From Candidatus Stercoripulliclostridium sp. (GTDB taxonomy: Bacteria; Bacillota; Clostridia; Christensenellales; DTU072): 35,344 nucleotides of DNA. Under the pieces are notes generated by a model that saw nothing but the letters and a program-made list of their open reading frames with translations, did not search any database and was not told where the DNA came from. The stretch lies in assembly GCA_045594145.1 (NCBI GenBank), contig JAZNYA010000147.1, positions 1 through 35,344 on the forward strand, read 5' to 3'. Position numbers and translations under genes: made by a program. This document shows positions 11,817-31,115 of the stretch, one piece after another; position 1 is the first letter of the stretch, and each line of letters starts with the position of its first letter.

Positions 11817-11855
11817 AATAGTTTCTCCATTAGTATAAAAGCGTATTAACTTATA

Positions 11856-11880
11856 GGGCGGAGTGTTTAACGCTCCGCCC
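11856..11880 (-). other. Intra-operon GC-rich stem-loop after the SBP gene
   Basis: GGGCGGAG-N9-CTCCGCCC perfect 8-bp stem, 36 nt downstream of the SBP stop. There is no clear T-run, so it is more likely an mRNA stabiliser or partial attenuator than a full terminator. Confidence 0.4.
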
Positions 11881-11915
11881 GTTCATAAGTTTTAATTAAG
11901 TTTCTTTTGCTTCAA

Positions 11916-13157
11916 TTATGCAATGATGGTGATACCATCGATGATGATATCGAAGTAAGGAGCAGAACGCTTGGAAGATTCGGTGAAGATACCGTTTTCG
12001 ACAGCGTTGGTTTCGCCTGCGAAGTCGCCTAGGTCGATGATGTCTGCATTGTAAGCAACGAGCTTGCCGTTAGCATCCATGGTGATGTTGCCATAGGTGT
12101 CGTTTGCCTTAGCATTTCTTACGGTGAAGTTAGCGGTATCGAATACCTTGAGGGTTCCACCCATAAGTTGTGCTTTAACTGCATCCAATTTAGCTTGGGT
12201 GCCTTCTGCTGCAGCTTGACCAAGAGCGGTAATTTGAACGGAACCGGTTGCAAGAGTGCCGGTGTAATCTTTAACGATTTCCTTATTGTTCATAACGCAA
12301 TCAAGCATATATTCAAAGTAGGGTTGCCAGTTAATCTTGGAAGCGATAACGAAGGTGCTTTCGGAAGAAACGCCGTTGTAGAATACGTTGGGAACGTTAG
12401 CTTCTTTACATGCGGTAGGAACGCCCATAGAGTCAGCGTGACCGGAAACTAGTTTTGCGCCTTCAGCGATTAGAGATTCAGCAGCACTCTTTTCGCCAGC
12501 TTCATCATACCAAGAGTTGGTGTACTTAACTTTCATAGTTACGTTAGGAACGATGCTCTTAACGCCAAGATAGAAAGAAGTGTAACCGGAAATAACTTCT
12601 GCATAGGGCCATGCACCTACGTAACCGATGGTTGCTTCTGCATCGGTGATATCTTCGCCGTACATTTCAATAAGTTTTAGACCTGCAGCAACGCCAGCAA
12701 GGTATCTACCTTCATAGATAGATGCGAAAGCATTGTGGAAGTTTGCGGGGGTATCGTTGGATGCGTCTTGGTCAAGAGACAAGCTTGCACCGGTACCGGT
12801 TGCGTGGCAGAATTGAACGTCAGAGAATTCTTTTGCTGCCTTAATCATATTTGCTTGGTGACCGAAAGAGTCAGCAAATACTACTTTGTAGCCTGCATCA
12901 GCAAATTGTGCGGCTTTTTCATAGCAGTCGTTACCTTCTTCGGGAATATCAACTACGATGGTGTATTGGTCTTCGGTAAGACCTTTTGCTTCACAAGCAG
13001 CCTTGAATGCGTCGATGAAGTTCTTGTCATAAGAAGAATTGTCACCGTGCAAGCAAATAAGAGCGGCTACAGGTTCTGCCTTGTTACATGCTACCAAGCT
13101 TACGCAAAGAGCTGCAACCATTGCTACGCAAAGAACGATAGCTAAAACTTTTTTCAT
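11916..13157 (-). CDS. BMP-family ABC transporter substrate-binding lipoprotein (PnrA/NupN/Med-like)
   Basis: Lipobox (SLVAC). BMP-type pattern (GYVGAWPYAEVISGYTSFYLG...YTNSWYD...AESLIAEGAKLVSGHADS). GGAGGAA RBS. Confidence 0.85.
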   Translation of the reverse strand: MKKVLAIVLCVAMVAALCVSLVACNKAEPVAALICLHGDNSSYDKNFIDAFKAACEAKGLTEDQYTIVVDIPEEGNDCYEKAAQFADAGYKVVFADSFGHQANMIKAAKEFSDVQFCHATGTGASLSLDQDASNDTPANFHNAFASIYEGRYLAGVAAGLKLIEMYGEDITDAEATIGYVGAWPYAEVISGYTSFYLGVKSIVPNVTMKVKYTNSWYDEAGEKSAAESLIAEGAKLVSGHADSMGVPTACKEANVPNVFYNGVSSESTFVIASKINWQPYFEYMLDCVMNNKEIVKDYTGTLATGSVQITALGQAAAEGTQAKLDAVKAQLMGGTLKVFDTANFTVRNAKANDTYGNITMDANGKLVAYNADIIDLGDFAGETNAVENGIFTESSKRSAPYFDIIIDGITIIA

Positions 13158-15458: not shown

Positions 15459-16436
15459 TTATTCGTACGTATCCAGTGCTGATTGTAGTCTTTCTTTAAC
15501 CTTATTCGCTACGTCTTTGGGTGCTACTACCCTAAGGGTTCCGCCAAATCCCATAACCCAAGCTATAAAGGTAGGTGATATTTGTGCTTCCACTTCAAAA
15601 ACAAGCTTCCCGCCTATTTCTTTTAGTTTTACGTCGTCTCCGAACTTATCGAAAACTCCATCAACTGCCGTTTTGTCCACTTCCAAAACTACCTTCTTAG
15701 GAGCTCCAACGTACATGCCGAAAAGTTGCTTTTTATGTTTCTTTATATCAAAGTTCCTGCTTTCCTTCGTTTCCTTAATTGGCTCGTTTATCATCCTAAG
15801 GCTTTCCATGCGGTCTATGCGATAATGTATTATGTTGCCGTGCTTATCGTCATAGCACATCAAATAATATTTGTCGTCACAGAAAACCGTTGCCAGCGGA
15901 TTGACCACGTATGGCTTGTTCTTATGTTGATAAACCTTTTCCCCTTTTTCATTATATTTAAAATAATAAAATGAAATTTGTTTTTGTTTTTCTAGGGCAA
16001 GAGCTATTTCGTTTATAGTATAGAACACCTTTTCGTTGGACGATTTGACAGTGTTAAATGCGACTATATTTCTCTTTAGCACTTCGCCTTTTTTAGCTCC
16101 GGCAAGACCTGCTATCTTTTTGACGAGTTGCTCGCTCTTTTTCTCCGATATAAACTTGGAAGCAAGCACGGCATCCATTAAAATTTGGAGTTCCGGGACG
16201 TCAAACGTTCTCTCCATTACGTAGTATTCGTTGCTCGTGGAGCGATTTACGCACACTTCATATCCGTTGGCGTTCAAAATCTTGACGTCTTCATATAGCG
16301 TCTTACGGTGGCAGGGAATTCCTTCTTCGCCCAGTCGCCTGATGATTTCTTCCGTCTTTAACGGATTTTCTTCATCGGACTCTCTATTAAGGATTTCCCA
16401 AATTTTTAGTATTCTTATTTTGTTCTTTTCATCCAT
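15459..16436 (-). CDS. WYL-domain transcriptional regulator (wHTH-WYL-WCX architecture)
   Basis: N-terminal wHTH (IRILKIWEILN...LKTEEIIRRLGEEGIPCHRKTLYEDVKIL). Central WYL-like beta segment (YVVNPLATVFCDDKYYLMCYDDKHGNIIHYRIDRM). C-terminal extension. The ATG abuts the upstream stop (TAAATG). Confidence 0.8.
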   Translation of the reverse strand: MDEKNKIRILKIWEILNRESDEENPLKTEEIIRRLGEEGIPCHRKTLYEDVKILNANGYEVCVNRSTSNEYYVMERTFDVPELQILMDAVLASKFISEKKSEQLVKKIAGLAGAKKGEVLKRNIVAFNTVKSSNEKVFYTINEIALALEKQKQISFYYFKYNEKGEKVYQHKNKPYVVNPLATVFCDDKYYLMCYDDKHGNIIHYRIDRMESLRMINEPIKETKESRNFDIKKHKKQLFGMYVGAPKKVVLEVDKTAVDGVFDKFGDDVKLKEIGGKLVFEVEAQISPTFIAWVMGFGGTLRVVAPKDVANKVKERLQSALDTYE

Positions 16437-17738
16437 TTATGCAAACACCTTTTGTAGCTTTGCCATCCACTTAGCTATCTTCTTTTCATCATATTCAGTG
16501 GGTATTTTCTTAGCGGTATTCATAGCTCCTACACCCTTGAGCAATGCCCCGACAACGCTTAGAACGAACGGGAGTTTCTTTACCGCAAGGCGTAATTTTT
16601 TGCATACGTCTTTTGCCGTCATCTTTCCGCCTTCGCCACCGGTTAGCATCTTAATATCATCTTCGGTTATGAATCCGGACTCTATAACATACTTGATATC
16701 GTCGTTATCCGCAACGAGTATTTTACGCTTCATGCAATCCACTAAGAAATGTTCGCTTGCTACCTTTTGATAATATTTTACTTGATATTTCCACAAGGTT
16801 TCCACTCCTACGGACGACTCTGCATTTATGGTTTCGCCCAGCATTTGTCCCGCTCTTAGTGAGCAAGCAATTCCCGAGCCTATTAGCGGTATGGTCATAA
16901 ACGCTGCATCACCAATTGCAACGTAGCCTTCTCCCACCATTTTGAGCAAAGGATAACGAATAGGAATTCTTGCCCTTCTGCCACCATAAACGATATCGTC
17001 ACCGATTATTGGATGCAATTCCTTTAGTTTAGCAATAGATGAATCTATCTCTTCTTGCGGTAGGCTTCCTATTCTTCCTATTAGTACGTTTTCCGTACCA
17101 TCCGGCTCGCATACTACCCAACTTATACCAAGAGCTCCTTCCGGCTTCAAATAGACCAAGCGACGATATTTTTCGGGTTCGGGTTCGCCTTCTCTCTTGT
17201 TAAAGTGTGCACGATAAACGTTAAAAGCTTCATCGGGATTTGCGGATTTTATGATACCCATACTCTCTGGTAAAGATGCCCTAAACTTAGAATCCATACC
17301 GGAGCAGTCTATAACCAAATCGGCATAAACGTTCTCTCCGCAAGCGACTACGCCCTTGACTTTTTCGTCTTCTATGATAAGTCTTTCAACGCTGGTTTCA
17401 TAAATTATTTTTGCTCCCTTTTCTTCTGCCCTAGTTGCAAGCATATCGCCAAAAGTGTGACGATATACGCCCCACTCCATCTTGTCTTCATCTTGATATA
17501 TGAACAAGGGCTTATCGCTAAACGGTGCCAAAAAAGATACGTTTTGCACTCTATGGCTGTCGCCGGGAATGAGAACTTCGAGTTCATCAAACACGTTATA
17601 CTCAACGTCGTCACGCCAGTCGTAACTTATCTTACCTTTGCACGAACGCTCGTAAACCGTAACGTCATGCCCGCCTTCTGCTAGCACTTTTGCCGATTGC
17701 AATCCGCCTATGCCGGCACCTATAACAACTATTTTCAT
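16437..17738 (-). CDS. FAD-dependent oxidoreductase, geranylgeranyl-reductase-like
   Basis: Rossmann dinucleotide motif KIVVIGAGIGGLQSAKVLAEGGHDVTVYER. GDAAFMTIPLIGSGIACSLRAG matches the GDAA..P..G.G FAD motif of the GGR/FixC family. Confidence 0.8.
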   Translation of the reverse strand: MKIVVIGAGIGGLQSAKVLAEGGHDVTVYERSCKGKISYDWRDDVEYNVFDELEVLIPGDSHRVQNVSFLAPFSDKPLFIYQDEDKMEWGVYRHTFGDMLATRAEEKGAKIIYETSVERLIIEDEKVKGVVACGENVYADLVIDCSGMDSKFRASLPESMGIIKSANPDEAFNVYRAHFNKREGEPEPEKYRRLVYLKPEGALGISWVVCEPDGTENVLIGRIGSLPQEEIDSSIAKLKELHPIIGDDIVYGGRRARIPIRYPLLKMVGEGYVAIGDAAFMTIPLIGSGIACSLRAGQMLGETINAESSVGVETLWKYQVKYYQKVASEHFLVDCMKRKILVADNDDIKYVIESGFITEDDIKMLTGGEGGKMTAKDVCKKLRLAVKKLPFVLSVVGALLKGVGAMNTAKKIPTEYDEKKIAKWMAKLQKVFA

Positions 17739-17772
17739 TTTCGTTCTCCCTTTTGAAAATTTGTTCGTTATT

Positions 17773-17801
17773 ATTATATAATAACTCCGCCCGTTTGTAA
17801 A
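17773..17801 (-). promoter_or_regulatory. Promoter of the oxidoreductase-WYL-GH43 unit
   Basis: Minus-strand TTTACA (17796-17801), 17-nt spacer, TATAAT (17773-17778). AAGGGAGAA RBS before the ATG at 17738. Confidence 0.5.
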
Positions 17802-17884
17802 TAGGGGTTGTCCCCGTTTTTTGCCAACTCATAAAAACACAATTGCATCTACCCAAATGAAATAATCTATGCTATAATGATTTC

Positions 17885-18400
17885 ATGATTAAGAATTATC
17901 AAGAACTCGTAGAAATAAAAAACCAATCCGGCGGGCTTGCTGTTGCTTTCGGATGCTTTGATATTTTGCATTACGGACATCTTAATTTTGTCAATTCCGT
18001 ATTAGAAAAAACGTCCCTTCCGCTTGCTTTGGGCGTACTTCCGGACGTTTACGTTAAGAACACAAAAGGAGAAGGTCGTCCAGTCCACACCGAAAGTGAA
18101 AGAGCTAGCACTCTCGATAGTAACGCACAACACGACTACACCTTTATTGTGAACGAAAAAGGCGACTTTGAGTTTTATAAATCCAAATTCAATCTAACTC
18201 ACGGTAAACTACTATGGGAATACGCATTGAACGCCTTGTATAAAATTAAGCCCACCGAATTTTATTATTCGACGGACTTCAAAATGACTAAAGAAATTCT
18301 CATGGTGTTTGACGAATTAAAGATAAAACATTATGCCGTTCCATATACTGAAGGCATTTCTTCTACCGCCATAATCGAAAAATGTCATTTGCCTAAATAG
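17885..18400 (+). CDS. HxGH-type cytidylyltransferase (TagD / CCT / RfaE-II-like)
   Basis: 171 aa. AFGCFDILHYGHLNF (CFDxxHxGH nucleotidyltransferase motif) and C-terminal YTEGISSTAII (RTEGISTS-type motif). Confidence 0.75.
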   Translation: MIKNYQELVEIKNQSGGLAVAFGCFDILHYGHLNFVNSVLEKTSLPLALGVLPDVYVKNTKGEGRPVHTESERASTLDSNAQHDYTFIVNEKGDFEFYKSKFNLTHGKLLWEYALNALYKIKPTEFYYSTDFKMTKEILMVFDELKIKHYAVPYTEGISSTAIIEKCHLPK

Positions 18401-19401
18401 GAAGCCAAGTAAACGTAATTCGCAATAGACGTATCCATATAGGGCATATCCAGTTTGCGAGATATCATCATCATTGCACTAAATCTTGTAACAAAGTATA
18501 GAAGCACGTTAAAATTCAGTGCTTCTTTTTTGTTTTCCATTGTCTCCTTATCGCCATAATAAGCTAATAAAAATCTATTGATTTCACCATCGGTCAAAAG
18601 AGTGGGATAATGCACCAAATAGGAAACTAAATCAAATTCCGGATTATTGTAGGTGGAAAGTTCCCAATCGTAAAGCTTAATAGACGGAGTCGTCGTCATG
18701 TTGTTTATTGTCAAATCCCCGTGACACACGCACCTACCAAAAGACGCCATTTTCTCATACGTTTTGCCATAGTCTTCGGCAAGTTTTCTTGCCTTTATGA
18801 GAAGCTCGTTAGGAAAAGCAGGAAAAACTTTTTTCACGCTCTCTATTAAAGCAAGCGAGAGCTCCTTCGCTTGCAAGTAGTCTTCCTTAACGTGAACGTT
18901 TGCTCCCACTTTAACGGCATCTTCCAAGCGTGGATATTCTCCATGTATTTTCTTTAGTAGTTCAGCAAGCTCTTCGTCCTTCGGTTCCCTAGAAATCTCC
19001 AGCTTTTCCATGATGACTATTGAACGTGTTTTATCGCTTTGGGCTCCGTAAATCTTTGGTAAGGATTCCTTAACAACGCTAAACGCAGAATACACCTTTT
19101 GCTCTCTTACTACACTATCTCTAATATAAAAAATGTATTTGCCCTTTTTATAATGCTTAAAAAACTCTTCCGAACCAAAATAGTTCATAGCATCGCCAAC
19201 GTTACTTTCAAACTGTCTCGACTTCATTTTTACGACGTATTCTCGTCCTTCTACAACGGCCTTCAATAAGGTTTCTTCTCCGCCGTCTTCCAATCGTGCA
19301 GTCATATTTCCCGTAGCTTTAAGTCGTTCCAAGGTTACTTCGCTACGGGTATTTAGCACTCTTTTTATGAAGTCTTTTATTTCGTCTTTAGAGTATATCA
19401 T
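18385..19401 (-). CDS. Choline/ethanolamine-kinase- or aminoglycoside-phosphotransferase-type small-molecule kinase
   Basis: 338 aa. Catalytic loop CHGDLTINNM (HGDxxxxN, Brenner motif). KLYDWELSTYNNPEFDL resembles the IDWEYxxxNxxxFDL choline-kinase motif. The ATG overlaps the upstream gene by 14 nt. Confidence 0.75.
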   Translation of the reverse strand: MIYSKDEIKDFIKRVLNTRSEVTLERLKATGNMTARLEDGGEETLLKAVVEGREYVVKMKSRQFESNVGDAMNYFGSEEFFKHYKKGKYIFYIRDSVVREQKVYSAFSVVKESLPKIYGAQSDKTRSIVIMEKLEISREPKDEELAELLKKIHGEYPRLEDAVKVGANVHVKEDYLQAKELSLALIESVKKVFPAFPNELLIKARKLAEDYGKTYEKMASFGRCVCHGDLTINNMTTTPSIKLYDWELSTYNNPEFDLVSYLVHYPTLLTDGEINRFLLAYYGDKETMENKKEALNFNVLLYFVTRFSAMMMISRKLDMPYMDTSIANYVYLASYLGK

Positions 19402-21697
19402 CTTCGTACTTTTCTATGGTTGCCATAAGCTCTAGGTATGCTTGGTATACGAGTTTTCCAAAAGAACTATCATCACGAAGCAATAGCTTTTCTACCGAAC
19501 GATAAAACTCGGCAACGTCCCTACTTACTCCCCTTCTCACTTCTATGAACTTCTTTGCAGAAAGAATATTAATTCTCCTTATGCGATAATAATGTTTCAA
19601 CTTGTTTTCGTTCAATAGATGTGCCTTATACGATACAAAACATTTTCTCCAAGAAAGTTCCCCGTCATCGTAATAAGGAATTTCTATATCCGTCCTATCG
19701 TCGTTATAATACCTTAACGCCATACCACAGTTTAGGAGAGCAAATTTCTCATCCGCTATCATTTCGTCGTAATACTTTTGCTCGTCGTTTTCATCTCCGC
19801 AAGCTAAAAGAGAATGCAGGCAAAGTATACGCATCGTCACGTCGGTGGTGCCTTCATAAATCTTCCTTACGAATCTTGCAACCTTTTGGAATCTATTAAG
19901 CCTATGCAAATGGTTAAAAATAGACAATACTTTGACGTAATCGTTTTCTTCTACGTCTTCATACAAATCCACCAATGCATCATAAACGTCATCCACACCT
20001 TCTTCTTCAAAGACGTCTGTTATAAAAGCGTTTATTTCCTTGTTGAAAGTGCGGTCGAGCATATGGCCAACTTCCCTTTCTTCCAAAACTCTATCCACGA
20101 AATCTCTGGCGATTAGATATTCCTTGAACATTTCATGAACAAAGGTTAAAACCCCGCTTTCATTTTCTATTGTGAAAATGTCAAGCATCACCCTAACGTC
20201 TCTTTCTTCAAGGTAAGTTTCTTGTGCAATCTTTTCTGCAAGCTTTTCTCTCGTGAGCAATCTCTTGCGTGTCGTTGAATATAGTTTCCAAGCAAGACTC
20301 TTTAACGCAACGTTTCCTTCTTCCGTCGTTAACGCAAGCATCTTCTTTTCTCGTTCACGCTTTATAATTCTACCTATTATACCACCCAGCGTGCTAGACA
20401 CCTTTAAAGAAAGATTTTCATCTACATCATCAAACTCTGCCGTGGCAAGATAGTAAGTGAGCACTAGCACTTTAGAGAATATTTTTTGACCTTTAATTTT
20501 ATCCACTATGAGCTTTGCTTCTTCTTCATCACAGCCACGTGCCTTAAGCAAAAAGTTGACGGCATATTTGCCTATTTCCCTTTCTCCAAATGGTTTAACT
20601 TCTATTACACTGTTTACTTTTGAAGAAACTTCATCGACGTAGAATCCCTTAAAACACGTAGTTCTCATGGACATAATGAGCGTGCTTTTTTCGTTAATGC
20701 CAAGTATCGCTTCTGTTATTAAACTAGAGTTTAGCTCACTGCTTTTTTCATCGAGAGCATCATAAAGATAAAGCGGGGACGTGTTTTTGCAAAAGGCTTT
20801 TAGTACTTCTGCATCCACCTTTAAAGATGCTTGTTCTACTATGTCGCCTATCACTTTTTCATAATCGAATTCCAGCGTTTTAGCACTGTTCAGGCTCTTG
20901 AATATTGGTATTTGGTTGCCTAGTTCCCCATTTAGTGCCTTTTCTGCATATTCCTTAAACAACCTATACATTAGGGTGGACTTACCGCTTCCACTCTCGC
21001 CGTGGAGCACGCTAACGCTACCTTCTTCCAATAGCACTTCGTTTAGGTCGTCAAAATACGGAGCACCATTTAAATATAGCTTTGGCTCTACAAAATACTC
21101 ATTTACTATGGTATCCATCTTCATTATTAAGGTGGAACCGGAGTGTGCCTTTTTAAGCCTTTCTATTTCGTATTTGATTATTTTTTCTTTTAGTTCCTTG
21201 TGCTCTAAGATTACCGGTTTGCTTTCGTCCAAACCAAGAGCTTTTAATAGCACGCCTTCGGTATAATCGGAGTAGCTTCTTGCACCTTCATAGGTTATAT
21301 AATCGATGTAATAAATCCTTTCCGCTCTTTCCTTTCCGAGCAGTTTTTCAAGGAGTTCTTTCTTTTCCGCATCCCAAGAAAAGCTCTTATGTGCTACCGC
21401 TAGTATGTTTTTATCCGGGTAACAAAGCACCGTTTTTAATTCATATAAAACTTCATCATTTTCACGGGTAAGGCCGTCTATAAAATAGTCGGTAAGGACG
21501 ATTATAAAGGTGGAGCATTCGTCTATTGCCCTTTCTTCTTCCTTCCTATAATTAGTGCCGTAAACACGATTTCTTTGCGAAGAAAAATAGGTGTTCTTGC
21601 CTTGCCTATCGCTGAGCGTACGGAAAATTTCGGCACCTATCGCACCGCCTAGTTCGGCATCGCCCCTAAAGCAAACGAAATATTCCGTCTTATTCAT
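19388..21697 (-). CDS. TIR-like domain fused to a NACHT/STAND P-loop NTPase with a helical C-terminal (sensor?) region
   Basis: 769 aa.
- aa 1-~135 have a TIR-like pattern (YFVCFRGDA...FIIVLTDYF...EVLYELKTVL).
- Walker A is VLHGESGSGKSTLMY (nt 20975-21001).
- Walker B is PLYLYDALDE.
- A sensor-1-like LIMSMRT follows.
- The C-terminal ~300 aa are alpha-helical-looking with no obvious repeats.
AGGGGAA RBS. Confidence 0.7.
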   Translation of the reverse strand: MNKTEYFVCFRGDAELGGAIGAEIFRTLSDRQGKNTYFSSQRNRVYGTNYRKEEERAIDECSTFIIVLTDYFIDGLTRENDEVLYELKTVLCYPDKNILAVAHKSFSWDAEKKELLEKLLGKERAERIYYIDYITYEGARSYSDYTEGVLLKALGLDESKPVILEHKELKEKIIKYEIERLKKAHSGSTLIMKMDTIVNEYFVEPKLYLNGAPYFDDLNEVLLEEGSVSVLHGESGSGKSTLMYRLFKEYAEKALNGELGNQIPIFKSLNSAKTLEFDYEKVIGDIVEQASLKVDAEVLKAFCKNTSPLYLYDALDEKSSELNSSLITEAILGINEKSTLIMSMRTTCFKGFYVDEVSSKVNSVIEVKPFGEREIGKYAVNFLLKARGCDEEEAKLIVDKIKGQKIFSKVLVLTYYLATAEFDDVDENLSLKVSSTLGGIIGRIIKREREKKMLALTTEEGNVALKSLAWKLYSTTRKRLLTREKLAEKIAQETYLEERDVRVMLDIFTIENESGVLTFVHEMFKEYLIARDFVDRVLEEREVGHMLDRTFNKEINAFITDVFEEEGVDDVYDALVDLYEDVEENDYVKVLSIFNHLHRLNRFQKVARFVRKIYEGTTDVTMRILCLHSLLACGDENDEQKYYDEMIADEKFALLNCGMALRYYNDDRTDIEIPYYDDGELSWRKCFVSYKAHLLNENKLKHYYRIRRINILSAKKFIEVRRGVSRDVAEFYRSVEKLLLRDDSSFGKLVYQAYLELMATIEKYEDDIL

Positions 21698-22475
21698 TTT
21701 CGCATTCCCCTACCATTTGTTCTATTTTCTTTGCACAATCCATAGCATAACTCAAATACTCGTATTCGTCTTTCGTCTTACTTGCATCTTTAGAGCCGTG
21801 AACTTCCAGCGTTATGCCCTTAATAAGTGGCATCTTTGCAATCCTAGAACATATTTTTGCCCAGTCACAGTTGCCTTCAAAAGGCATATAGTGGTCGTCG
21901 GTTTTACCAAAGTTATCGTGAAGGTGTAGTAACGCCACACGATTAATGCACTCTAAAACGTCAAAGTCATTGGGATAATAAATGTTATGGTGGCCGGCAT
22001 CATAGCAAACCTTCACGCTCTCCGGCATCCTTTCCATAACGCCCCAAAAGTAATCTAGTCGCCTTAAGTTTTCTATGCATAGCGTAAGACCACATTTTTC
22101 GTAATATTCCGCAACCTTTAGTATGCGGTTAAACCCGATTTCACTCATGGGCGGTGGTTCCGGGCTCGAAGAAATATGCATGGTTAGTTTATCTACTCCT
22201 ATGCTTTTTGCATAGTCCGCCCCTTTTATCATTTGTGAAAAATAAAAATCACCACGCTCTCCGGACAACCATAAATCGTTAACAACGTTCCTAAATGGAA
22301 GATGTATACTTTCTACTTCCAACCCGCTTTTTAGAGCAAAGTCAATTTCGTCATAAAAACTAGGCGTACGTTCAAAAAGTGCCATTACCCCATCAAAGCC
22401 CACTGCTTTAACGAGTTCTACACTGCGTTTATAATCGCCTTCAAAGCCATAATAAAAAGATATGTTCTTTTTCAT
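21690..22475 (-). CDS. Xylose-isomerase-like TIM-barrel protein (sugar-phosphate isomerase/epimerase / AP-endonuclease-2 fold)
   Basis: I place the start at ATG 22475 (MKKNISFYYGFEG), which has GGAGAAAAA upstream and an ATGA overlap with the upstream stop. Metal-ligand pattern typical of the fold: ...ESIHLPF..., ...LTMHISS..., ...LCIENL..., ...CYDAGHHN..., ...LHLHDN..., ...ITLEVH. Confidence 0.75.
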   Translation of the reverse strand: MKKNISFYYGFEGDYKRSVELVKAVGFDGVMALFERTPSFYDEIDFALKSGLEVESIHLPFRNVVNDLWLSGERGDFYFSQMIKGADYAKSIGVDKLTMHISSSPEPPPMSEIGFNRILKVAEYYEKCGLTLCIENLRRLDYFWGVMERMPESVKVCYDAGHHNIYYPNDFDVLECINRVALLHLHDNFGKTDDHYMPFEGNCDWAKICSRIAKMPLIKGITLEVHGSKDASKTKDEYEYLSYAMDCAKKIEQMVGECENE

Positions 22476-22999
22476 TTTTTCTCCACTAAGCACGCCCAGT
22501 CTTTCATAAGTTTTTCTAACGTATACGTTGCATTTGCCGGCGACGTTGACGGCAGACACACCGCTTCTATGCAAAGCGAAGGCAAAACGTATTTATCGTA
22601 ATACTTTTTTGCCGTTTTACCATTAACGAAAATTCTCTTAACGTTAGAATTGTTTAGTATTATCGTCAAATCGTTCGGCTTAACGTTTCTTATTGAACTA
22701 TCACTGGAGCCCACGATTTCGCAACTTTCTATTACGTCCCATACCGCAATCCCTAAGGATGATAAGAGTGCTTTTTTCTCGCTCACGCTACTTGGCTCTT
22801 GTTTGCCATCGAGTCTTGAAAGCACCTTCCAAAACCTATTTTGTGGATGTCCGTAAAAGAAGCTTTGCTCTCTTGATTTGACCGACGGAAAAGAACCTAG
22901 CACGAGAACTTGGGAGTTTTCGTCGTATACGGGTGGTATGGGATGATGAATAAGTTGATACCTTTCGTCTTTATCCGTTTTATCTTTCCGCTTTGCCAT
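22472..22999 (-). CDS. UDG-superfamily DNA glycosylase, hypoxanthine (deoxyinosine)-DNA-glycosylase-like
   Basis: 175 aa. VLVLGSFPSVKSREQSFFYGHPQNRFWKVL matches the GSFPSxxS...FYYxHPxNRFW signature I associate with family-6 'DNA-deoxyinosine glycosylase'. A C-terminal LPSTSPAN motif-B-like segment is present. Confidence 0.7.
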   Translation of the reverse strand: MAKRKDKTDKDERYQLIHHPIPPVYDENSQVLVLGSFPSVKSREQSFFYGHPQNRFWKVLSRLDGKQEPSSVSEKKALLSSLGIAVWDVIESCEIVGSSDSSIRNVKPNDLTIILNNSNVKRIFVNGKTAKKYYDKYVLPSLCIEAVCLPSTSPANATYTLEKLMKDWACLVEKK

Positions 23000-23005
23000 A
23001 TCAAA

Positions 23006-23034
23006 ATATTACCATAAAAGCTATGCTTTTACAA
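23006..23034 (-). promoter_or_regulatory. Candidate promoter of the glycosylase-TIM-TIR/NACHT-kinase cassette
   Basis: Minus-strand TTGTAA (23029-23034), 17-nt spacer, TAATAT (23006-23011). The -10 ends 6 nt before the ATG at 22999, and no Shine-Dalgarno is visible. Confidence 0.4.
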
Positions 23035-23052: not shown

Positions 23053-24096
23053 CTAGAGATATATCTTTTCAAAAGCGTACGTATCTTCTACGCTAACGGC
23101 TAGAGCGTTTATAGTTGTGAGCGTTACGCTGGGGCTAACGTCTTTCGGCATCCAAGCAGAATAACCGCTTGGAGACGAAAGTTGATAATATCTTCCTTCG
23201 TAATACGAGCATAAATCGTTTCCGTGTTGATGTCCGCAAGAAATGAGCGTAAGCAATTCTTCACCGGCAAACATATTATCTAAAATTGCGTTTTTGGGTA
23301 TCGAAGAATAGGAATCTGAGAGCCTTTTTGGCATATTTTCGTACTCCTTCCCGTTTTCATAAGCATCTTCAAAGGCAGGTGTTTGCATGTGCATAAAGAG
23401 TGACGTGCGAACCCCACGACGTATTATTTCTTCCTTTAAACGTGCCACTTGGCTTTCTCTAAGATGGTCGTAACTTCCGGTGATTTTCGGTTTTCTCATA
23501 CCGCTATCCATAAACGCAAGAGTATGCACCCTTTCTCCGCCACGGGTTACGTCAACGCAAAATTGCAAGTCGCCGTATATTCCTTCCACGTTTCCCGCAA
23601 GAAAGTGCTCGTAGCGTAACATATATGCTATCACGTCTTGGTTAGAGCCGTCTATTTCACCATCGTTGTTGCCGGGCGTAAAAGTCCACGGTACGTCGTA
23701 TTCTTCCACCAATTGACAAATCTTCTTTATTGCGTTCTCCTTGTCGTAAGCGGGATTTAGACTGAACCCTTCAACCAGGTCTCCGGCAAGCACTATGAAG
23801 TCAACGTCCGTCTTATTAAGGATGCTTTTGAGTCCTGCAAGCGTCTTGACGTCATCCGCTGTTTCACCATTTAGAAGGTGCGTGTCATTAATCTTAAGAA
23901 CCTTTAGAGTGCCGTTTTCATCCGTCTCTACAGAGTAGTTATAACCAGCATAAATTTCGTCATAATCATCTTCCAGCGGTAACTTGTTCGTCCAAGCTCT
24001 ACCGCCTACGTAAGCTCCAAACGAAGCCCCCGCAACAGCGATTATAACGAGTACAATGATTAATATTTTTCTTGTGTCACACTTTGATATTTTCAT
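23053..24096 (-). CDS. Membrane-anchored calcineurin-like metallophosphoesterase
   Basis: N-terminal TM helix (ILIIVLVIIAVAGASFGAYVGG). Metallophosphoesterase motifs appear in order: INDTHL (DxH), LAGDLVEG (GDxxE/D), GNNDG (GNHD/E variant), CGHQHGN (GHxH). AAGGAAG RBS. Confidence 0.85.
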   Translation of the reverse strand: MKISKCDTRKILIIVLVIIAVAGASFGAYVGGRAWTNKLPLEDDYDEIYAGYNYSVETDENGTLKVLKINDTHLLNGETADDVKTLAGLKSILNKTDVDFIVLAGDLVEGFSLNPAYDKENAIKKICQLVEEYDVPWTFTPGNNDGEIDGSNQDVIAYMLRYEHFLAGNVEGIYGDLQFCVDVTRGGERVHTLAFMDSGMRKPKITGSYDHLRESQVARLKEEIIRRGVRTSLFMHMQTPAFEDAYENGKEYENMPKRLSDSYSSIPKNAILDNMFAGEELLTLISCGHQHGNDLCSYYEGRYYQLSSPSGYSAWMPKDVSPSVTLTTINALAVSVEDTYAFEKIYL

Positions 24097-24111
24097 ATCG
24101 TTCTTCCTTTA

Positions 24112-25269
24112 TTACAACAACTTTACGGTATATCCGCCAAACGAATACACGGGTTGGTCCTGCCTTACGCCACGTGGACAAAAGTCCGTAGTGATAATTT
24201 GCGAACCGCACTTTTCCGCTAGAGCATATCTTTCTTCGCTTACCTTGGGGTAATGGTCGGCACGAGTTCTCACTATATAGTTACCACTTTCAAAAACGTC
24301 CTTTCTCTTTATCGTCTTTTTGGGATTGTTGTCAATTATAAACGATGCGTATTCTCTTTCTCTTTGCTTATATAAGAGCGACGGAAACATTGCTTGCGTA
24401 CGTAAAGTATCGTCACGAGCGACGTAGTCTTCCGTCATTTTTGTTTCATGAAGTATGACGACGATTTTGCCCAGCATATCATTGAGTGCCATCCAGCTAT
24501 TGTCTTCTCTCATTTCTTTGAAGGTTTCGTAAGAGCCCAGCATATCTCCGGGAGTAATGAGCTTGTCGCCCAACTTTTCTTTTAGAAGTGCATCAAAGGC
24601 ATCCGCATGCTCTATTCCAAATATTTTTAATTCGTCAAGTGGGGCTACGTCTTGCTTGGCTTCTATTATGATGCTTATTGGTAAATGCCCTGGGTTGTGG
24701 TTAGACCACATAACTATTTCTTCCAGCGTGGTTGCAAAATCCAAGCAACTGGTCGCACTATCGAAAACGGGTTTATGCATGACGGTAAAGGTCGTTTGCG
24801 TGCCTGTTTCTTTTGCTTCTACGTCTATTTCTATGCTCCTAATACCATTTTCAAATTGCATGGTAAGAGTGTCGTTTACAAAATCGTTTTTATTAAAGTT
24901 TTTTAAGCCCAACGCAAGAATCTTAAATGGTAATTGGAAATCCTTGGTTGCTTCCGTTGCAAGCCGTTGATAGCTATTATGGGTAGCCAAAAATGCAACT
25001 TCGTTATACTTAACTCCGCTTTCTAATGCTTGTGCCAAATCAAAATTACAAAAGGTTTGTTCCCCTTTTGGCGTATAATTCTTATAAAACTCGTTCTTTA
25101 AATAAGCCATATGCTCGGCTTGGAAACGCTCGTTGTCTACCTTGTTTAACGCATAAACGTCTTTTGCATATTCCCATAAACCTATGGAAACAGCTCCTGC
25201 AACAATCACCACAGAGACAACGACAACAACTACTATCTTTATAATTTTCTTAAGTAAATCTCGGTTCAT
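24112..25269 (-). CDS. Membrane-anchored PLC-like phosphodiesterase (Ca2+-dependent PI-PLC-like TIM barrel)
   Basis: N-terminal TM helix (IVVVVVVSVVIVAGAVSIGLW). FLATHNSYQ and NGIRSIEIDVEAK resemble the HNSY / G-x-R-x-hEhD motifs of the PI-PLC X-domain superfamily. Confidence 0.65.
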   Translation of the reverse strand: MNRDLLKKIIKIVVVVVVSVVIVAGAVSIGLWEYAKDVYALNKVDNERFQAEHMAYLKNEFYKNYTPKGEQTFCNFDLAQALESGVKYNEVAFLATHNSYQRLATEATKDFQLPFKILALGLKNFNKNDFVNDTLTMQFENGIRSIEIDVEAKETGTQTTFTVMHKPVFDSATSCLDFATTLEEIVMWSNHNPGHLPISIIIEAKQDVAPLDELKIFGIEHADAFDALLKEKLGDKLITPGDMLGSYETFKEMREDNSWMALNDMLGKIVVILHETKMTEDYVARDDTLRTQAMFPSLLYKQREREYASFIIDNNPKKTIKRKDVFESGNYIVRTRADHYPKVSEERYALAEKCGSQIITTDFCPRGVRQDQPVYSFGGYTVKLL

Positions 25270-25283: not shown

Positions 25284-26315
25284 CTATTCGTCAAACTTTA
25301 TATTTTTAAATAGGTCTCCAAGAGTAGCCTTCGGCATTTCGGTTACGTATTCTTTAATACCTGTCTTTGATGCCTTTCTTTCCTTATATCTTTTTGCCAA
25401 ATCATCGTGGTTTACCTTCAAGATATCAAGAAACTTTTCTCTGGACATGAGCTCAAGTTTGCCGTTTTTAACTTCTTCCATCACGAACATTTCTCTTCTA
25501 TCAAGCACGTCGTCTTCTTCCATTTGCACAAAATAATGGCACTCTTTAAGATTTGTTTCGTATCTGCAATTGTGCTTTGAAAGAATATGAATTAGTTCCA
25601 GGGTTTCTTCAAAGTAAGCGTTTTCATACGTCATGCTAAAGCACAACTTTTTGTCCGTCAATTCGCTTTGGATGGGCTTTCCTTTTTTATGCAAACTCCT
25701 TGCTAGATTTTTAATTTCGTGTTGCTTGTTAAGCATACTACTCGTTTGTGACTTACCGCAAATGCTCGGTATCTTTTCTTCTACGTCCTTCAACTCCACG
25801 CCGGATTCACCGGCAAGTTTTTGTATCAATTGACAAACCAAGTAGGAATCTTCATCGCTTCTATGCAAAAATACGGGCTTTTTCAAATTGTATTTTTCTA
25901 TCGCCCTTTCAAGTGAAATGTTGCCGTATTCCTTGTGGACGTATTCGCTAAAAGCTTGGCTATCAACAAAAGAGAAATCTATTTCGTCAAGTCCGTAACG
26001 TGAACAAGCGACTCGCAAAAACTTACAGTCGTTTTCGCCGTCGTGTGCCACGTTAACCATATCGGGCGACTCCAACAATTCTTTGATTTTATTATAATAA
26101 AACGGGAAAGTTGCACACATTTTATAGTAAACTTCCGTGTAATACAACTCTATTCCCGGCCTTCCACGCCTTTCGAAGACTTCAAACCTTGATTCCGGAT
26201 TCATCGGTATGACTTCTCGTTTAAGCACGTTGTAGTTTTCATCCGTTATGACGTACCCAAACTCGCACATACGCAAGCCATCAGAACATTCAATATCAAA
26301 AAACAAATATTTCAT
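25284..26315 (-). CDS. DEDDh 3'-5' exonuclease (DnaQ-like) with a C-terminal BRCT-like segment
   Basis: Exo I is FFDIECSD, Exo II is VAHDGENDCKFL, and Exo III is HRSDEDSYL (H-x4-D). aa ~215-265 (KKLCFSMTYENAYFEETLELIHILSKHNCRYETNLKECHYFVQ) have a BRCT-like pattern, but this is low confidence. Confidence 0.8.
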   Translation of the reverse strand: MKYLFFDIECSDGLRMCEFGYVITDENYNVLKREVIPMNPESRFEVFERRGRPGIELYYTEVYYKMCATFPFYYNKIKELLESPDMVNVAHDGENDCKFLRVACSRYGLDEIDFSFVDSQAFSEYVHKEYGNISLERAIEKYNLKKPVFLHRSDEDSYLVCQLIQKLAGESGVELKDVEEKIPSICGKSQTSSMLNKQHEIKNLARSLHKKGKPIQSELTDKKLCFSMTYENAYFEETLELIHILSKHNCRYETNLKECHYFVQMEEDDVLDRREMFVMEEVKNGKLELMSREKFLDILKVNHDDLAKRYKERKASKTGIKEYVTEMPKATLGDLFKNIKFDE

Positions 26316-26444: not shown

Positions 26445-28772
26445 TTAGTAGTTATACTTTTCAAGCATGGTTTCTAATTCTACCAATATTCTCTTCACTT
26501 CTTCTACGTCAACGTTTCTTGTTGCTCTATATAGGGCAAGTCTCTTGACGTTAAAGCATCTATCTATGACGCTTTGTGTACTTGCCTTGAAGGCTTCCAT
26601 TATTTCATCAAAAACAGCTTCCAGTTCAACTTGAAGTTCACTTGCAGTAACTTCTTCGTCTGCAACGCTTACGTTTAAGCCGTATTTTTGAATTTCTTCT
26701 TCCGTAAAATACTGCTCGACGTTCTTTATGAACGATTCCAAGCACTCCTTCAAGCCATCATATTCAGTTTCCAAGTCTTTTTGAGCACGTTTTAACTCGT
26801 TTTCCTTCTTGGTCTTTTCAAATCCAAGCTTATTCAAAGAACTTTCCGCCGTCTTATATTCTCTAATAGACTTTTCCAGATTATCATATATCTCGCCGTC
26901 CATTTGGAAGATAAACTTAGGTCTACCAAACATGGGCACTTCCTTTCTTTCCCAGTATTGTATAATCTTTCTGAGCTGTTTTAGAGTTTCTTGATAATCT
27001 CTATGATTCTTTTCGCTTGCACGAATAGCCCCTTCTTGTTGGAACCTATAGTTGTCGTTTTCGTTCAACTTTACCGGGCTACGAGAGATTATGCTCTTAC
27101 CTTCGCTGATTCTTCTACTGCATTCTTGTGCAAAGGCTTCCAACAATCTTATTCTTCCTTTAACACCAAAATATTTGCGTCCGTCCTTGCCGAGAACTGA
27201 ACCCCTATTGACAAGTTCATCACCCGTTTGTTCAGCTTCTTTCTTATCGTTTTCCCACTGAGCCATATTCATATCGATTTTTTGAATTTCGCTTTTCGTG
27301 GATGCGATTTTAGCTTGTAAGTCGGTTATAGTGGAAAGCTTTTTATCAAGTTTGGGGAACTGCTTCCTTTGTTCAGCTAGCAATACCATGGCGTCTATCT
27401 TGCCGTTTTTAAAGCAATCTATAAGTTCATTACACTTTGCTTCTTGGGCTCTTTCCAGCCTTTGAGCTTTTTCTTCCTTTTTGAACTCTTTAAGGTTTTC
27501 AAGAACGTCCTTTGTGCCTTGGGTTACTACGGCATCGTTACTATCCGTTAACACCGCACTTGCAACTTCTTGCAATATTCTTTCTTTTACGTCTTGGGCT
27601 CTTTCTTCAACGTATGCTTTTGCATCGACGCTACCATCTATTACAGAGAACAAGTCTTTGTTTGCAAAGTAATCTTTTTGGGCTTTAACAAGCTTATTAT
27701 ATTCTTCTTCAACAAAGTACGTATTTTTAAAGCCTTCAAACTCATCGAAAGCGACAAAAGAAATACTGCAGTCATCGTGGGTGGTGGGCTTGTATTCAGC
27801 ATGCCATAGTTGAGCAAATTCTTCAAAGGATTGGGCTTCCTTTAGAGCCTTTAGCATAACTTCTTCTACGCCGATATTGTCGATAGGGTCAAAAGGGTCG
27901 AAGAAACCGTCGCTACAAGCGAATATCGCACTGCCTTTGGGAAGCTTGTATGCCTTATAACGCAATATAGTATTTGTACCACGTCCTTTGCTGATGGCAA
28001 ACAAGTTGTTGATGGCTCCGGAGTTATCTTCGTCGTCAACGGTTAGTTGTACTAATCCTTTGCCGGGAATTAAAGCGTGTCCCCTAGAGTCGCCTGCCCA
28101 TATAACTTCCACGTTTAGACCATCTTCCATTTCTTTATACCTTATTGCAACCAACGTAGTGGGCAAAATGGATTGGCCTGATATTTCTGCGTCTTTGAGT
28201 TCAAAGCCTTTTTGGGTATCGAGTAATCCTTGATATACGAATTTAACCAGCTTTGCTCTTTCGATTTCATTACTTAAATCCATGTCGCCATTTGTTCTAA
28301 GGTAATAAACGGTTCTTGCAATAGCAATACGAGAACCCCAGAGAGCCGACGTATCCGATGCTTCGTCAGACATGGGTTTTACCATTTCATCTATCCAGCT
28401 TCTAAACTCTTCATCTAGTTCCTGTTTATCAAGCTCGCTTCCTTCCGCTTCGTTTATAACAGTTTCTTTGCCTTCGCTAATTACTTCTTCCAAAACTTCT
28501 ACGCAAGTTTCCTTTTCTTCCAAAGCCACAACTTCTTGTTTGTTAGAATCGGTCTTTTCCGTAAAATATTCGGGTAAAAAGGTGGTTTTTAGCGTTTCTG
28601 CAAAATCGCCCTTTTTGCATTGCTCTTCTATTACGTGAACAAAAGAGCCGGAGCCACCCAAGCCATCCGCTACTGCGATTAGTCCGCTTTTTTCTTCGGC
28701 ATCTACGTAAACGTACGGCTCAGCGTCTTCATTTTTTTGTACTTTGTAAAATCTAAAATAGTTAGTACTCAT
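26445..28772 (-). CDS. PP2C-family Ser/Thr phosphatase fused to a ~430-aa predicted coiled-coil tail
   Basis: 775 aa. All four PP2C metal-binding motifs are present: VADGLGGSG, WAGDSRGH, FACSDGFFD, THDDCSISFV. There is an acidic insert (aa ~75-125). aa ~343-775 are heptad-like and rich in K/E/Q. AAGGAAG RBS lies 9 nt after the kinase stop. Confidence 0.8.
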   Translation of the reverse strand: MSTNYFRFYKVQKNEDAEPYVYVDAEEKSGLIAVADGLGGSGSFVHVIEEQCKKGDFAETLKTTFLPEYFTEKTDSNKQEVVALEEKETCVEVLEEVISEGKETVINEAEGSELDKQELDEEFRSWIDEMVKPMSDEASDTSALWGSRIAIARTVYYLRTNGDMDLSNEIERAKLVKFVYQGLLDTQKGFELKDAEISGQSILPTTLVAIRYKEMEDGLNVEVIWAGDSRGHALIPGKGLVQLTVDDEDNSGAINNLFAISKGRGTNTILRYKAYKLPKGSAIFACSDGFFDPFDPIDNIGVEEVMLKALKEAQSFEEFAQLWHAEYKPTTHDDCSISFVAFDEFEGFKNTYFVEEEYNKLVKAQKDYFANKDLFSVIDGSVDAKAYVEERAQDVKERILQEVASAVLTDSNDAVVTQGTKDVLENLKEFKKEEKAQRLERAQEAKCNELIDCFKNGKIDAMVLLAEQRKQFPKLDKKLSTITDLQAKIASTKSEIQKIDMNMAQWENDKKEAEQTGDELVNRGSVLGKDGRKYFGVKGRIRLLEAFAQECSRRISEGKSIISRSPVKLNENDNYRFQQEGAIRASEKNHRDYQETLKQLRKIIQYWERKEVPMFGRPKFIFQMDGEIYDNLEKSIREYKTAESSLNKLGFEKTKKENELKRAQKDLETEYDGLKECLESFIKNVEQYFTEEEIQKYGLNVSVADEEVTASELQVELEAVFDEIMEAFKASTQSVIDRCFNVKRLALYRATRNVDVEEVKRILVELETMLEKYNY

Positions 28773-28781
28773 TTTCTTCCT

Positions 28782-30386: not shown

Positions 30387-30406
30387 TGCTACTCCTTTAA
30401 TTATCT

Positions 30407-31105
30407 TTAGCTTTGAGAACTAGCACTTGCACATAGGATTTTGAGAATACCATCAAACGAAACGTCTGACATACCTTTATCGGCTACTACCGGTTGGAAC
30501 GATGACCTATTAAGCACTCTTGCAAGGTCTTCATACTTTGAACCGGCGGGAGCAAACATAACGATTCTCTTACCCCTTTCCGTCATCTTGTTTGCATTAC
30601 CGAGCTTACAGAACCAGGTGTTGATTAAGGCGTCTTGGGTCAATCCGGTAGGATAACCCGTTCTTGCATCCTTTTCACCAAACCCTATAGCATCGGTATC
30701 GGTAAACAATACGATAACTTGTCTGTCGTTGGTGCCCTTTGCCTTGAACTCTGTCGTCATTGCTGATTGAAGAGCTTCTAGGCCACTTTCTTTTTTGTCT
30801 CCGCCACCTATTGCTTTGATGCCGTTAAGATATCTTTCGAAATCATAATCTTCATCCGGGAGTTCGAAGAATCTGCTCTTTACCAATCCTTCTACGTCGC
30901 ATTCTAGGTCACGGAATACTATAACCTGCACTCTCAACATATCTACGTCACTGTTATAATCGTTTACTATACTTTGATAAAAGTCTTTGTAGAACGTTCT
31001 AGCGTGATTTCTGATATTATCGATACACGGTCCCATACTACTAGTTCCGTCTATGCAGAAAACTATATCGATATTTCTTCCTTTTCTTAGTTGGTTAAAT
31101 CCCAT
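30407..31105 (-). CDS. Cytoplasmic vWA-domain protein (paralog B of 32066..32782)
   Basis: 232 aa. MIDAS-type IDIVFCIDGTSSM, GGGDKKESGLEA, VLFTDTDA. No signal peptide. About 45% identity by eye to the vWA at 32066..32782. AAGGAG RBS. Confidence 0.85.
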   Translation of the reverse strand: MGFNQLRKGRNIDIVFCIDGTSSMGPCIDNIRNHARTFYKDFYQSIVNDYNSDVDMLRVQVIVFRDLECDVEGLVKSRFFELPDEDYDFERYLNGIKAIGGGDKKESGLEALQSAMTTEFKAKGTNDRQVIVLFTDTDAIGFGEKDARTGYPTGLTQDALINTWFCKLGNANKMTERGKRIVMFAPAGSKYEDLARVLNRSSFQPVVADKGMSDVSFDGILKILCASASSQS

Positions 31106-31115
31106 TATTTTCTCC

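Follow-up and report, generated by a model that had tools for sequence, protein, structure and literature searches.

The window analysed here, a stretch of 35,344 nucleotides from Candidatus Stercoripulliclostridium sp. (contig JAZNYA010000147.1 of assembly GCA_045594145.1), carries a gene for a TIR-like/NACHT STAND NTPase set among genes for small-molecule enzymes, and the locus is best explained as a conserved and so far undescribed multi-gene NLR-like module. The invariant partners of the NACHT protein are a kinase and a nucleotidyltransferase, and its frequent partner is a TIM-barrel protein; the module is recognised by the linkage of these genes, their co-inheritance, their domain identities and the conservation of their catalytic residues. 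That they form a conserved module can be held with great confidence, and a role in defence or conflict is likely. The complete reading, in which the module probably acts in conflict or against phages through the mechanism proposed below, is favoured somewhat above even chance, and any specific chemistry must be regarded as doubtful. The system belongs to a known kind, the NLR-like/TIR-STAND proteins, its novelty being the dedicated set of enzymes, and a literature search on NACHT or TIR proteins together with a kinase, a cytidylyltransferase or a TIM barrel found no description of this operon.

Regarding its organisation, an earlier note on this DNA had pointed out four minus-strand open reading frames (ORFs) as one translationally coupled cassette, and the ORFs and their overlaps are as it gave them: a glycosylase (22472-22999, 175 aa), a TIM barrel (21690-22475, 261 aa counted from its ATG, the mechanical ORF reaching a TTG at 22574), the NACHT protein (19388-21697, 769 aa) and a kinase (18385-19401, 338 aa). 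The junctions consist of an ATGA at 22472-22475, preceded by a GGAG Shine-Dalgarno sequence, followed by overlaps of 8 nt (21690-21697) and 14 nt (19388-19401), and relatives keep the same tight coupling, with overlaps of 1-20 nt or gaps below 10 nt. The domains assigned to the four products, namely the uracil-DNA glycosylase (UDG) superfamily, an AP_endonuc_2 TIM barrel, NACHT and an APH kinase, are also confirmed by Pfam and NCBIfam scores. The gene set itself, however, has to be revised, as the glycosylase is not a core component and the nucleotidyltransferase gene was overlooked. The latter lies on the opposite strand (17885-18400, +), convergent with the cassette and overlapping the 3' end of the kinase gene by 16 nt. 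The GC fraction of the cassette (0.38-0.41) equals that of its flanks.

The conservation of the module was followed by gathering neighbourhoods around homologues of the NACHT protein, the kinase and the TIM barrel, all loci being scanned with purpose-built hidden Markov models. By their NACHT proteins, which share 27-52% identity between groups, the loci form six lineages from gut Christensenellales/Clostridia metagenome-assembled genomes (MAGs); the closest ones were recovered from goat, sheep and chicken gut, in MAGs of Candidatus Stercoripulliclostridium, Christensenellales and Clostridia. In every locus with enough flanking sequence the NACHT, kinase and nucleotidyltransferase genes are found together, the kinase gene adjoins the NACHT gene in every locus, and the TIM barrel is present in five of the six lineages; the neighbourhood comparison that the earlier note had called for finds the NACHT-kinase-transferase order kept across all six. 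Moreover, the pairwise identity matrix of the NACHT protein is congruent with those of the kinase (Spearman 0.88) and of the transferase (Spearman 0.80). Homologues of the kinase, the transferase and the TIM barrel down to 33-40% identity always adjoin a NACHT gene, and among the loci recovered no kinase, transferase or TIM-barrel operon of the module's clade lacks one. The nearest outgroups, at 30-33% identity for the TIM barrel and 24-26% for the kinase, occur in unrelated contexts without the other partners, the TIM barrels at 33% in a different operon and those at 30% in sugar-utilisation loci. Two kinase matches from Desulfobacterota (L020 and L021) were rejected as members of the system, being HMG-CoA-reductase-kinase fusions in lipid-synthesis contexts.

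The family is also rare. When 1.84 billion representatives were searched exhaustively with HMMER, about 7 full-length NACHT-family clusters were found, and scans of genome and metagenome contig collections with the NACHT alignment confirmed no relative. With the kinase alignment, the genome contigs gave 8 system loci and two unrelated fusion genes; the JGI metagenome contigs gave nothing in two motif-based scans, one with the NACHT and one with the kinase alignment. As a tblastn search of plasmid and phage records with the NACHT protein had no match, these collections offer no evidence for carriage on plasmids or prophages. In one lineage, L008, the module stands amid five TIR-domain genes and a DUF4062 gene, adjoining TraG and a recombinase. 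A role in conflict is supported by these TIR-rich surroundings, by the rarity and patchiness of the family and by the swapping of N-terminal effector domains described below.

Comparing the loci, here referred to by their L numbers, the close members of the window's clade possess the NACHT-kinase-transferase genes, the TIM barrel, the glycosylase and, except for the window, a RyR-domain membrane protein, noting that the contigs of L012 and L015 stop short of the site of that last gene. Within the same clade, L005 has the three invariant genes, the TIM barrel and the membrane protein and is devoid of the glycosylase, which is thus confined to the window's own clade and not universal there. The other five lineages all keep the three invariant genes and all lack the glycosylase: L006/L007/L019 have neither TIM barrel nor membrane protein and present a GDPD gene divergent upstream; L008 has the TIM barrel and a membrane-protein homologue of 598 aa; L018/L022 have the TIM barrel and no membrane protein; L009/L017 and L030 have the TIM barrel, their contigs stopping about 1 kb past the transferase gene in L009/L017 and past the transferase gene in L030. 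In L006, the slot of the TIM barrel upstream of the NACHT gene is occupied by divergent genes for GDPD (a phosphodiesterase), an LDcluster4 (LOG/SLOG-like) protein and a DUF6125 protein (4538-6546, -), a set in which the phosphoesterase may have been replaced by a non-orthologous enzyme and a nucleotide-binding protein added. In L009/L017, the NACHT gene (3237-5572) is broken in its TIR-coding part into fragments at 3237-3473 and 3374-5572, owing to a frameshift or an assembly error, and the system may be in decay there.

The central protein of the module (19388-21697, -) is a STAND NTPase with a TIR-like N-terminus, a NACHT module and a helical C-terminus, an architecture already proposed from the letters alone and now borne out by AlphaFold2/Foldseek and profile comparisons and by invariant motifs. 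It matches the Pfam NACHT family (PF05729) with an E-value of 1.4e-7 and 31.9 bits, against a gathering score of 26.7. NACHT-clade STAND NTPases are recognised by a Walker A motif GxxGxGK[ST], a Walker B motif hhhhDxxDE, a sensor-1 Arg and a winged-helix motif FxHxxxxE[FY]L. In the window's protein, Walker A (GESGSGKST) and Walker B (LYLYDALDE) are both present and conserved, and among homologues at 28-35% identity the Walker A residues G233-T241, the residues D313, D316 and E317, R345, and F519-x-H521-E522 of the winged helix are invariant. The best Foldseek matches of the model in the Protein Data Bank (PDB), compared with the nucleotide-binding, helical and winged-helix modules of solved NLRs, are NOD2, NLRP3, the TIR-NLR RPP1, NAIP5 and EfAvs5, with E-values from 2e-7 to 1e-5, and confidence in this fold match is moderate because the model has a mean pLDDT of 74 (74.3).

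The N-terminal domain (aa 1-160; 21218-21697, -) resembles TIR by two approaches, as the earlier note had anticipated. In Foldseek, the N-terminal part of the model shows the flavodoxin-like TIR fold, aligning with the TIR chain 8p2l_I, a SARM1/TIR-1 chimera, with a target-normalised TM-score of 0.70, a root-mean-square deviation of 3.9 Å and an E-value of 1e-3. Meanwhile, a profile of the 160 N-terminal residues finds the TIR domain of Caenorhabditis elegans TIR-1 as its first PDB match (E 0.028). A search for the catalytic glutamate expected in the alpha-C helix pointed to an invariant candidate, E86, which is aligned to the Glu of the TIR-1 sequence HKELK, a residue that we take to correspond to the catalytic Glu of SARM1, E642. 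The N-terminus is read as a divergent TIR-like domain, for which NADase activity is plausible.

The C-terminal helical domain (aa 541-769; 19391-20077, -), the presumed sensor, has no Pfam match. Together with the TIR-like domain it is the most conserved part of the protein. Its identity is 80-87% among members of the clade and 34-39% in comparison with distant lineages, and its core (aa 620-720) reaches 92-95% and 38-46%, respectively. The nucleotide-binding domain is the least conserved, at 47-70% within the clade and 17-28% to distant lineages. Searches also recovered about 80 clusters in which the NACHT and C-terminal domains stand behind other N-termini, such as DUF4062 or CHAT, and such swapping of the N-terminal effector is typical of conflict systems. 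DUF4062 has been reported as a TIR-like NADase in a preprint (10.64898/2026.05.01.722283). One DUF4062-NACHT relative, L029, adjoins radical-SAM, HD-domain and DNA-methyltransferase genes, with no kinase, transferase or TIM-barrel neighbours.

Both invariant partners are catalytically intact by their motifs. The kinase (18385-19401, -) has an APH/choline-kinase fold, matching Pfam APH with an E-value of 5e-7 (30.1 bits against 23.2) and Choline_kinase below threshold (24.4 against 29). Membership was judged by the catalytic HxD-x4-N loop, the Mg-binding Asp and the ATP-binding Lys, and the residues K58, K60, D229, N234 and D245 are invariant. Its AlphaFold2 model (pLDDT 91) finds in Foldseek, as best matches, the choline kinase LicA, fructosamine-3-kinase, YtaA and APHs, so that both groups with which the earlier note had proposed to compare it, LicA and APH, are matched by the fold. 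As these structural neighbours are of superfamily level (TM 0.5-0.65, 11-18% identity), no substrate can be assigned to the kinase. The cytidylyltransferase-like HxGH nucleotidyltransferase (17885-18400, +) matches PF01467 with an E-value of 1e-11 (45.5 bits against 21), its best PDB sequences being human ethanolamine-phosphate cytidylyltransferase (ECT; 3e-7), then choline-phosphate cytidylyltransferase (CCT) and TagD. The motif GCFDIxHxGH is invariant, the C-terminus carries a (Y)TEGISST-like motif, and the specific equivalogs RfaE domain II, TagD and PPAT all score below their cut-offs. Convergent in the window, its gene is co-directional in L008, L009 and L030. The two enzymes resemble a choline/ethanolamine kinase and CCT/ECT pair, which would produce a CDP-alcohol or another NDP-alcohol.

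The frequent partner (21690-22475, -) is a TIM barrel of the AP_endonuc_2 superfamily (Pfam PF01261, 6e-21), for which the earlier note had proposed a comparison with Nfo versus sugar isomerases; its candidate metal ligands resemble those of Nfo, and its sequence is nearer to MJ1311 and to ketose epimerases than to endonuclease IV (Endo IV). Among PDB sequences, MJ1311 is the nearest (4.9e-12), followed by ketose 3-epimerases (about 1e-5), and Endo IV gives E-values of 0.04-0.8. When the ligands of the trinuclear site of Escherichia coli Nfo (H69, H109, E145, D179, H182, H216, D229, H231 and E261) were compared in an automatic alignment, seven of the nine fell on the invariant residues H100, E135, D159, H162, H184, D193 and H195, and the invariant H58 and E224 sit 2-3 residues off the other two. 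The best NCBIfam match is the CbiR phosphodiesterase (NF041277), at 45.4 bits against a cut-off of 105, and no cobamide genes occur in any locus examined. CbiR cleaves the phosphoribosyl bond in cobamides, that is, it acts on a small-molecule substrate (PMC7733943). The TIM barrel is probably a metallo-phosphoesterase rather than a sugar isomerase, and it is not an Nfo orthologue. Its nearest outgroup, at 33% identity, lies in L024 (3453-10275) beside an N6/N4 methyltransferase and a ResIII/Z1 gene, in an operon encoding a 582-aa and a 199-aa protein, a PRK/AAA_18-like kinase, a HAD protein, the TIM barrel, a 433-aa protein and a beta-lactamase-fold protein; this may be another uncharacterised small-molecule conflict operon.

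An optional fifth partner, lost from the window, is a membrane protein of 717-750 aa whose gene stands between the transferase and geranylgeranyl-reductase-like genes in L001 (11908-14061), L003, L005, L011 (9014-11266), L013 and L014; in L008, the 598-aa homologue is encoded directly downstream on the same strand (10684-12480). Its place in the window is a clean intergenic gap of about 147 bp (17739-17884), and tblastn detects no remnant of the gene in the window. The protein has 3-4 transmembrane segments at its N-terminus, Rossmann-like regions and a C-terminal RyR-like domain; Pfam RyR matches with an E-value of only 0.047, and a profile of the C-terminal domain ranks RyR repeat structures first in the PDB (6uhi, E 5.5e-4), then bacterial chains annotated as putative ryanodine receptor. 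Phage RyR-domain proteins are reported to bind or cleave 2'/3' cyclic ADP-ribose (cADPR), which are products of TIR enzymes (2026 preprint, PMC13232231), and by this analogy the membrane partner may be linked to signals of the ADP-ribose (ADPR) type, a connection to be taken as a lead and not as proof.

Taking these parts together, a mechanism can be proposed in which the C-terminal domain would sense a trigger and the NACHT domain would oligomerise, assembling the TIR-like domains, which could then split NAD+ or a related nucleotide in the manner of TIR-STAND and TIR-NLR proteins. The kinase and the transferase would perform a two-step activation, from X-OH to X-phosphate and then to CDP-X or another NDP-X, and the TIM-barrel phosphoesterase might cleave a phosphodiester bond in that compound or in its precursor. 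The resulting small molecule could mature or extend the TIR product, or could gate the sensor as a ligand, and the RyR-domain membrane protein, where encoded, may be the receptor or the effector. In its most specific form, this would be an NLR-like receptor with an operon-encoded pathway yielding a CDP-linked or modified ADPR-derived compound, an immune messenger or gating ligand of a new class, to be recognised either through the NACHT protein's highly conserved C-terminal domain or, where present, through the RyR membrane protein; such a pathway is a rather unlikely proposal at present.

Compared with described systems, the closest architecture is that of bNACHT/TIR-NLR STAND proteins, which share an N-terminal effector, a NACHT domain and a C-terminal sensor, with NACHT motifs and fold as in NOD2 and NLRP3, and TIR is included among the N-terminal effector domains listed for bNACHT proteins (Kibby et al., bioRxiv 10.1101/2022.07.19.500537). 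The window's system differs by its three conserved enzyme partners, by the lack of a PADLOC match and by a C-terminal domain that is Pfam-less and unusually conserved. As for kinases, Kaur et al. mention those of the APH type only as sporadic effectors. The likeness to Thoeris lies in the TIR-type enzyme and in the separate RyR-domain protein of the window's relatives, a domain type binding 2'/3' cADPR; unlike Thoeris, the module has no ThsA-type SLOG/SIR2 or Macro effector, joins its TIR domain to a NACHT sensor in one protein, includes a kinase, a transferase and a phosphoesterase besides, and in the window lacks the RyR partner. With the Swarozyc/DUF4062 NADases (10.64898/2026.05.01.722283), the link is that the closest relatives of the NACHT and C-terminal domains outside the family bear DUF4062; however, the N-terminus of the window's protein matches TIR_2 weakly and not DUF4062, and the relative L029 has no neighbouring kinase, transferase or TIM-barrel gene.

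Among the enzymes, the pairs of the Kennedy type (ChoK/EthK with CCT/ECT, and pneumococcal LicA-LicC) likewise place an APH/ChoK-fold kinase next to a nucleotidyltransferase, but identity to the window's enzymes is only 11-18%, no CDP-alcohol-consuming transferase or transporter is linked, and here the NACHT gene is embedded between the enzyme genes. The TIM barrel shares with Endo IV (Nfo) the superfamily and has an invariant set of candidate His/Asp/Glu ligands resembling those of Nfo, although the similarity is weak (E 0.04); CbiR, despite being its best NCBIfam match, is separated from it by the score (45 bits against a cut-off of 105) and by the lack of cobamide genes nearby. Relatives of the TIM barrel at about 30% identity are found in sugar-utilisation operons.

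Several observations weigh against the module being a TIR-NLR conflict system. The Pfam families TIR, TIR_2 and TIR_3 do not exceed their gathering scores in the window's protein, TIR_2 giving an E-value of 0.088 and 13.7 bits against 28, and among relatives with the same N-terminal domain and any Pfam match there, the match is TIR_2 alone, at E-values from 1.3e-5 to 0.04, all below threshold. Besides, the usual Trp of the WxxxE motif is replaced by an invariant Glu, E82, aligned to the Trp of the TIR-1 sequence DWVHKE. The very high conservation of the C-terminal domain is unusual, differing from the fast-evolving sensors of phage proteins and fitting a fixed ligand or partner. In PADLOC v2, the window's NACHT protein has a match to mad3 (E 0.0017) only at the level of the P-loop, and nothing was matched by the L008 homologue, the membrane partner or the remaining proteins of the system. 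The putative membrane effector is missing from the window. Among distant lineages, the history of the TIM barrel is incongruent with that of the NACHT, kinase and transferase genes (Spearman about 0.0-0.1), and within the window's genus the cassette occupies one fixed chromosomal position with native GC, giving it the look of vertical inheritance and not of a mobile element. Finally, defence, NADase activity and any product are predictions from sequence and models.

The pairing of a ChoK-like with a CCT/ECT-like enzyme, in turn, is classic head-group metabolism, and some loci have neighbours of envelope or lipid type (PI-PLC-like, metallophosphoesterase, GDPD and GtrA genes). The locus could be housekeeping salvage of head groups, in which a phosphodiesterase, either the TIM barrel or in L006 the GDPD protein, would free an amino-alcohol or polyol, the kinase and the cytidylyltransferase would convert it to a CDP-alcohol for the envelope or lipids, and the NACHT protein would be a STAND regulator or scaffold rather than an immune sensor. 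Consistent with this, LicA choline kinase is the best structural match of the kinase model and ECT and CCT are the best PDB matches of the transferase; in the window, the upstream neighbours are PI-PLC-like and metallophosphoesterase genes and the downstream neighbour is a geranylgeranyl-reductase-like gene; L006, which has no TIM barrel, carries a GDPD gene in its place, and L022 a GtrA gene nearby; HMG-CoA reductase is the fusion partner of the nearest kinase outgroups, which stand beside CDP-alcohol phosphatidyltransferase genes; and within the genus the position is stable and chromosomal with native GC. However, no CDP-alcohol-consuming transferase (LicD, CDP-OH_P_transf) or transporter is conserved across the loci examined, the lipid-type neighbours are kept within the close clade only, and, for a housekeeping pathway, the family is extremely rare and patchy. 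Such a pathway also sits poorly with a TIR-like domain bearing an invariant candidate Glu that is swapped for DUF4062 or CHAT in relatives, and with the TIR-rich mobile island in which L008 lies. Head-group salvage is considered unlikely.

In a guard or tonic-signal variant of the immune reading, the enzymes would constantly make and turn over a CDP-linked metabolite that keeps the TIR-NACHT protein off via its C-terminal domain, and disturbance of nucleotide pools or of the metabolite by a phage would release the NADase. A fixed ligand, whether a small molecule or self, would fit the high conservation of the C-terminal domain, the catalytic residues of the enzymes are kept in all lineages, the module persists without the membrane partner, and the transferase gene has a promoter-like site of its own and is often convergent, which makes separate regulation possible. 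Nevertheless, the argument is purely inferential, and the same conservation could equally reflect binding of a partner enzyme or of a conserved phage protein, and this variant appears quite unlikely.

The base-excision system suggested in the earlier note, in which the glycosylase would take modified bases out of phage DNA, the Endo IV-fold TIM barrel would cut at the resulting abasic sites and signalling would fall to the TIR-NACHT protein, is very improbable. The glycosylase (22472-22999, -) is a bona fide family-6 UDG (hypoxanthine-DNA glycosylase; TIGR04274, 136.3 bits against 80; PDB 2l3f, 2e-17), its gene, the co-transcribed upstream neighbour, is translationally coupled to the TIM-barrel gene in the window's clade, and the TIM barrel has candidate metal ligands of the Nfo type. 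However, the glycosylase is missing from L005, L006/L019, L008, L009, L018/L022 and L030, that is, L005 and the five other lineages keep the module without it, leaving a base-excision or abasic-site mechanism without comparative support, and the TIM barrel is far nearer to MJ1311 and ketose epimerases than to Endo IV, CbiR, its nearest named family, being a small-molecule enzyme. The glycosylase was therefore ruled out as a system component and is a lineage-specific operon neighbour. What stands of that suggestion is its general form, a multi-component system, because the tight linkage of the NACHT protein with small-molecule enzymes is conserved. The other suggestion of that note, a TIR-NACHT gene inserted into an existing repair or head-group operon, taken here as a recent landing that leaves the linkage without functional meaning, can draw on the incongruent TIM-barrel phylogeny and on the lineage lacking the TIM barrel, but it is hardly credible, as no TIM-kinase-transferase operon without a NACHT gene was found among the loci recovered, partner homologues always adjoin one, the NACHT-kinase-transferase order is kept at 27-34% NACHT and 29-48% kinase identity with congruent distances, and outgroups with 24-33% identity belong to unrelated operons.

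Concerning transcription, the window's glycosylase has about 17 extra N-terminal residues (22945-22999, -) relative to its 158-aa relatives, with no Shine-Dalgarno sequence before the ATG at 22999, and its true start and the 5' end of the transcript are uncertain. The candidate promoter noted earlier at 23006-23034 did not hold: TTGTAA-17-TAATAT has 8 of 12 matches, below the threshold of the consensus scan, which does not list it, and the end of its -10 box is about 6 nt from the glycosylase ATG; it was dropped as evidence. Read-through from upstream is equally possible, since the metallophosphoesterase gene upstream on the same strand is just 53 bp away from the glycosylase gene. In the region as a whole, promoter-like matches (14 versus 13.4 ± 4.3) and terminator-like matches (4 versus 4.7 ± 1.9) are at the level of shuffled sequence. 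The best promoter-like site of the region (17753-17782, +; TTGAAA-18-TATAAT, 11/12) precedes the nucleotidyltransferase gene as a consensus match and is paired with a divergent minus-strand site at 17801-17773. The sole minus-strand terminator-like hairpin (18248-18279) lies about 106 nt past the kinase stop, within the convergent nucleotidyltransferase gene, and the kinase and nucleotidyltransferase transcripts probably overlap in antisense. An Rfam scan of the whole window had no match.

The module is flanked by genes at 15459-17738 (-) and 23053-25269 (-), encoding a WYL/WCX regulator, a geranylgeranyl-reductase-like flavoprotein, a calcineurin-like metallophosphoesterase and a Ca-dependent PI-PLC-like protein, a set with a flavour of phospholipid head groups that probably lies outside the module, as its synteny is limited to the close clade. 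Elsewhere in the window, a run of genes at 26445-32875 (-) and 25284-26315 (-) resembles another cluster of conflict type, with a 775-aa Pfam-less protein, a Ser/Thr kinase (Pkinase 2.8e-14, with generic PADLOC kinase matches to MkoA and PD-T4-6), three consecutive vWA-domain proteins and a DEDDh-exonuclease-like protein.

For the biology of these bacteria, three enzymes that are catalytically intact by motif, as partners of a TIR-NACHT protein, point to unrecognised chemistry around TIR-NLR signalling, where they could mature the TIR product, block the recycling of NAD+ by phages or make a metabolite that gates the sensor. The module could also reveal the role of RyR-type domains in cellular, non-phage proteins. 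If it should prove to be head-group metabolism with a STAND regulator instead, a TIR-NACHT protein would have been put to an unusual use outside immunity. With four genes in about 4.6 kb, the conserved module is a small target that could show whether NLRs couple to dedicated metabolite synthesis. To our knowledge, the bacterial NLR-like proteins described so far are essentially single-gene systems, and an NLR-like receptor served by a pathway of its own operon would, if true, be the first NLR whose activity depends on an own-operon metabolite.

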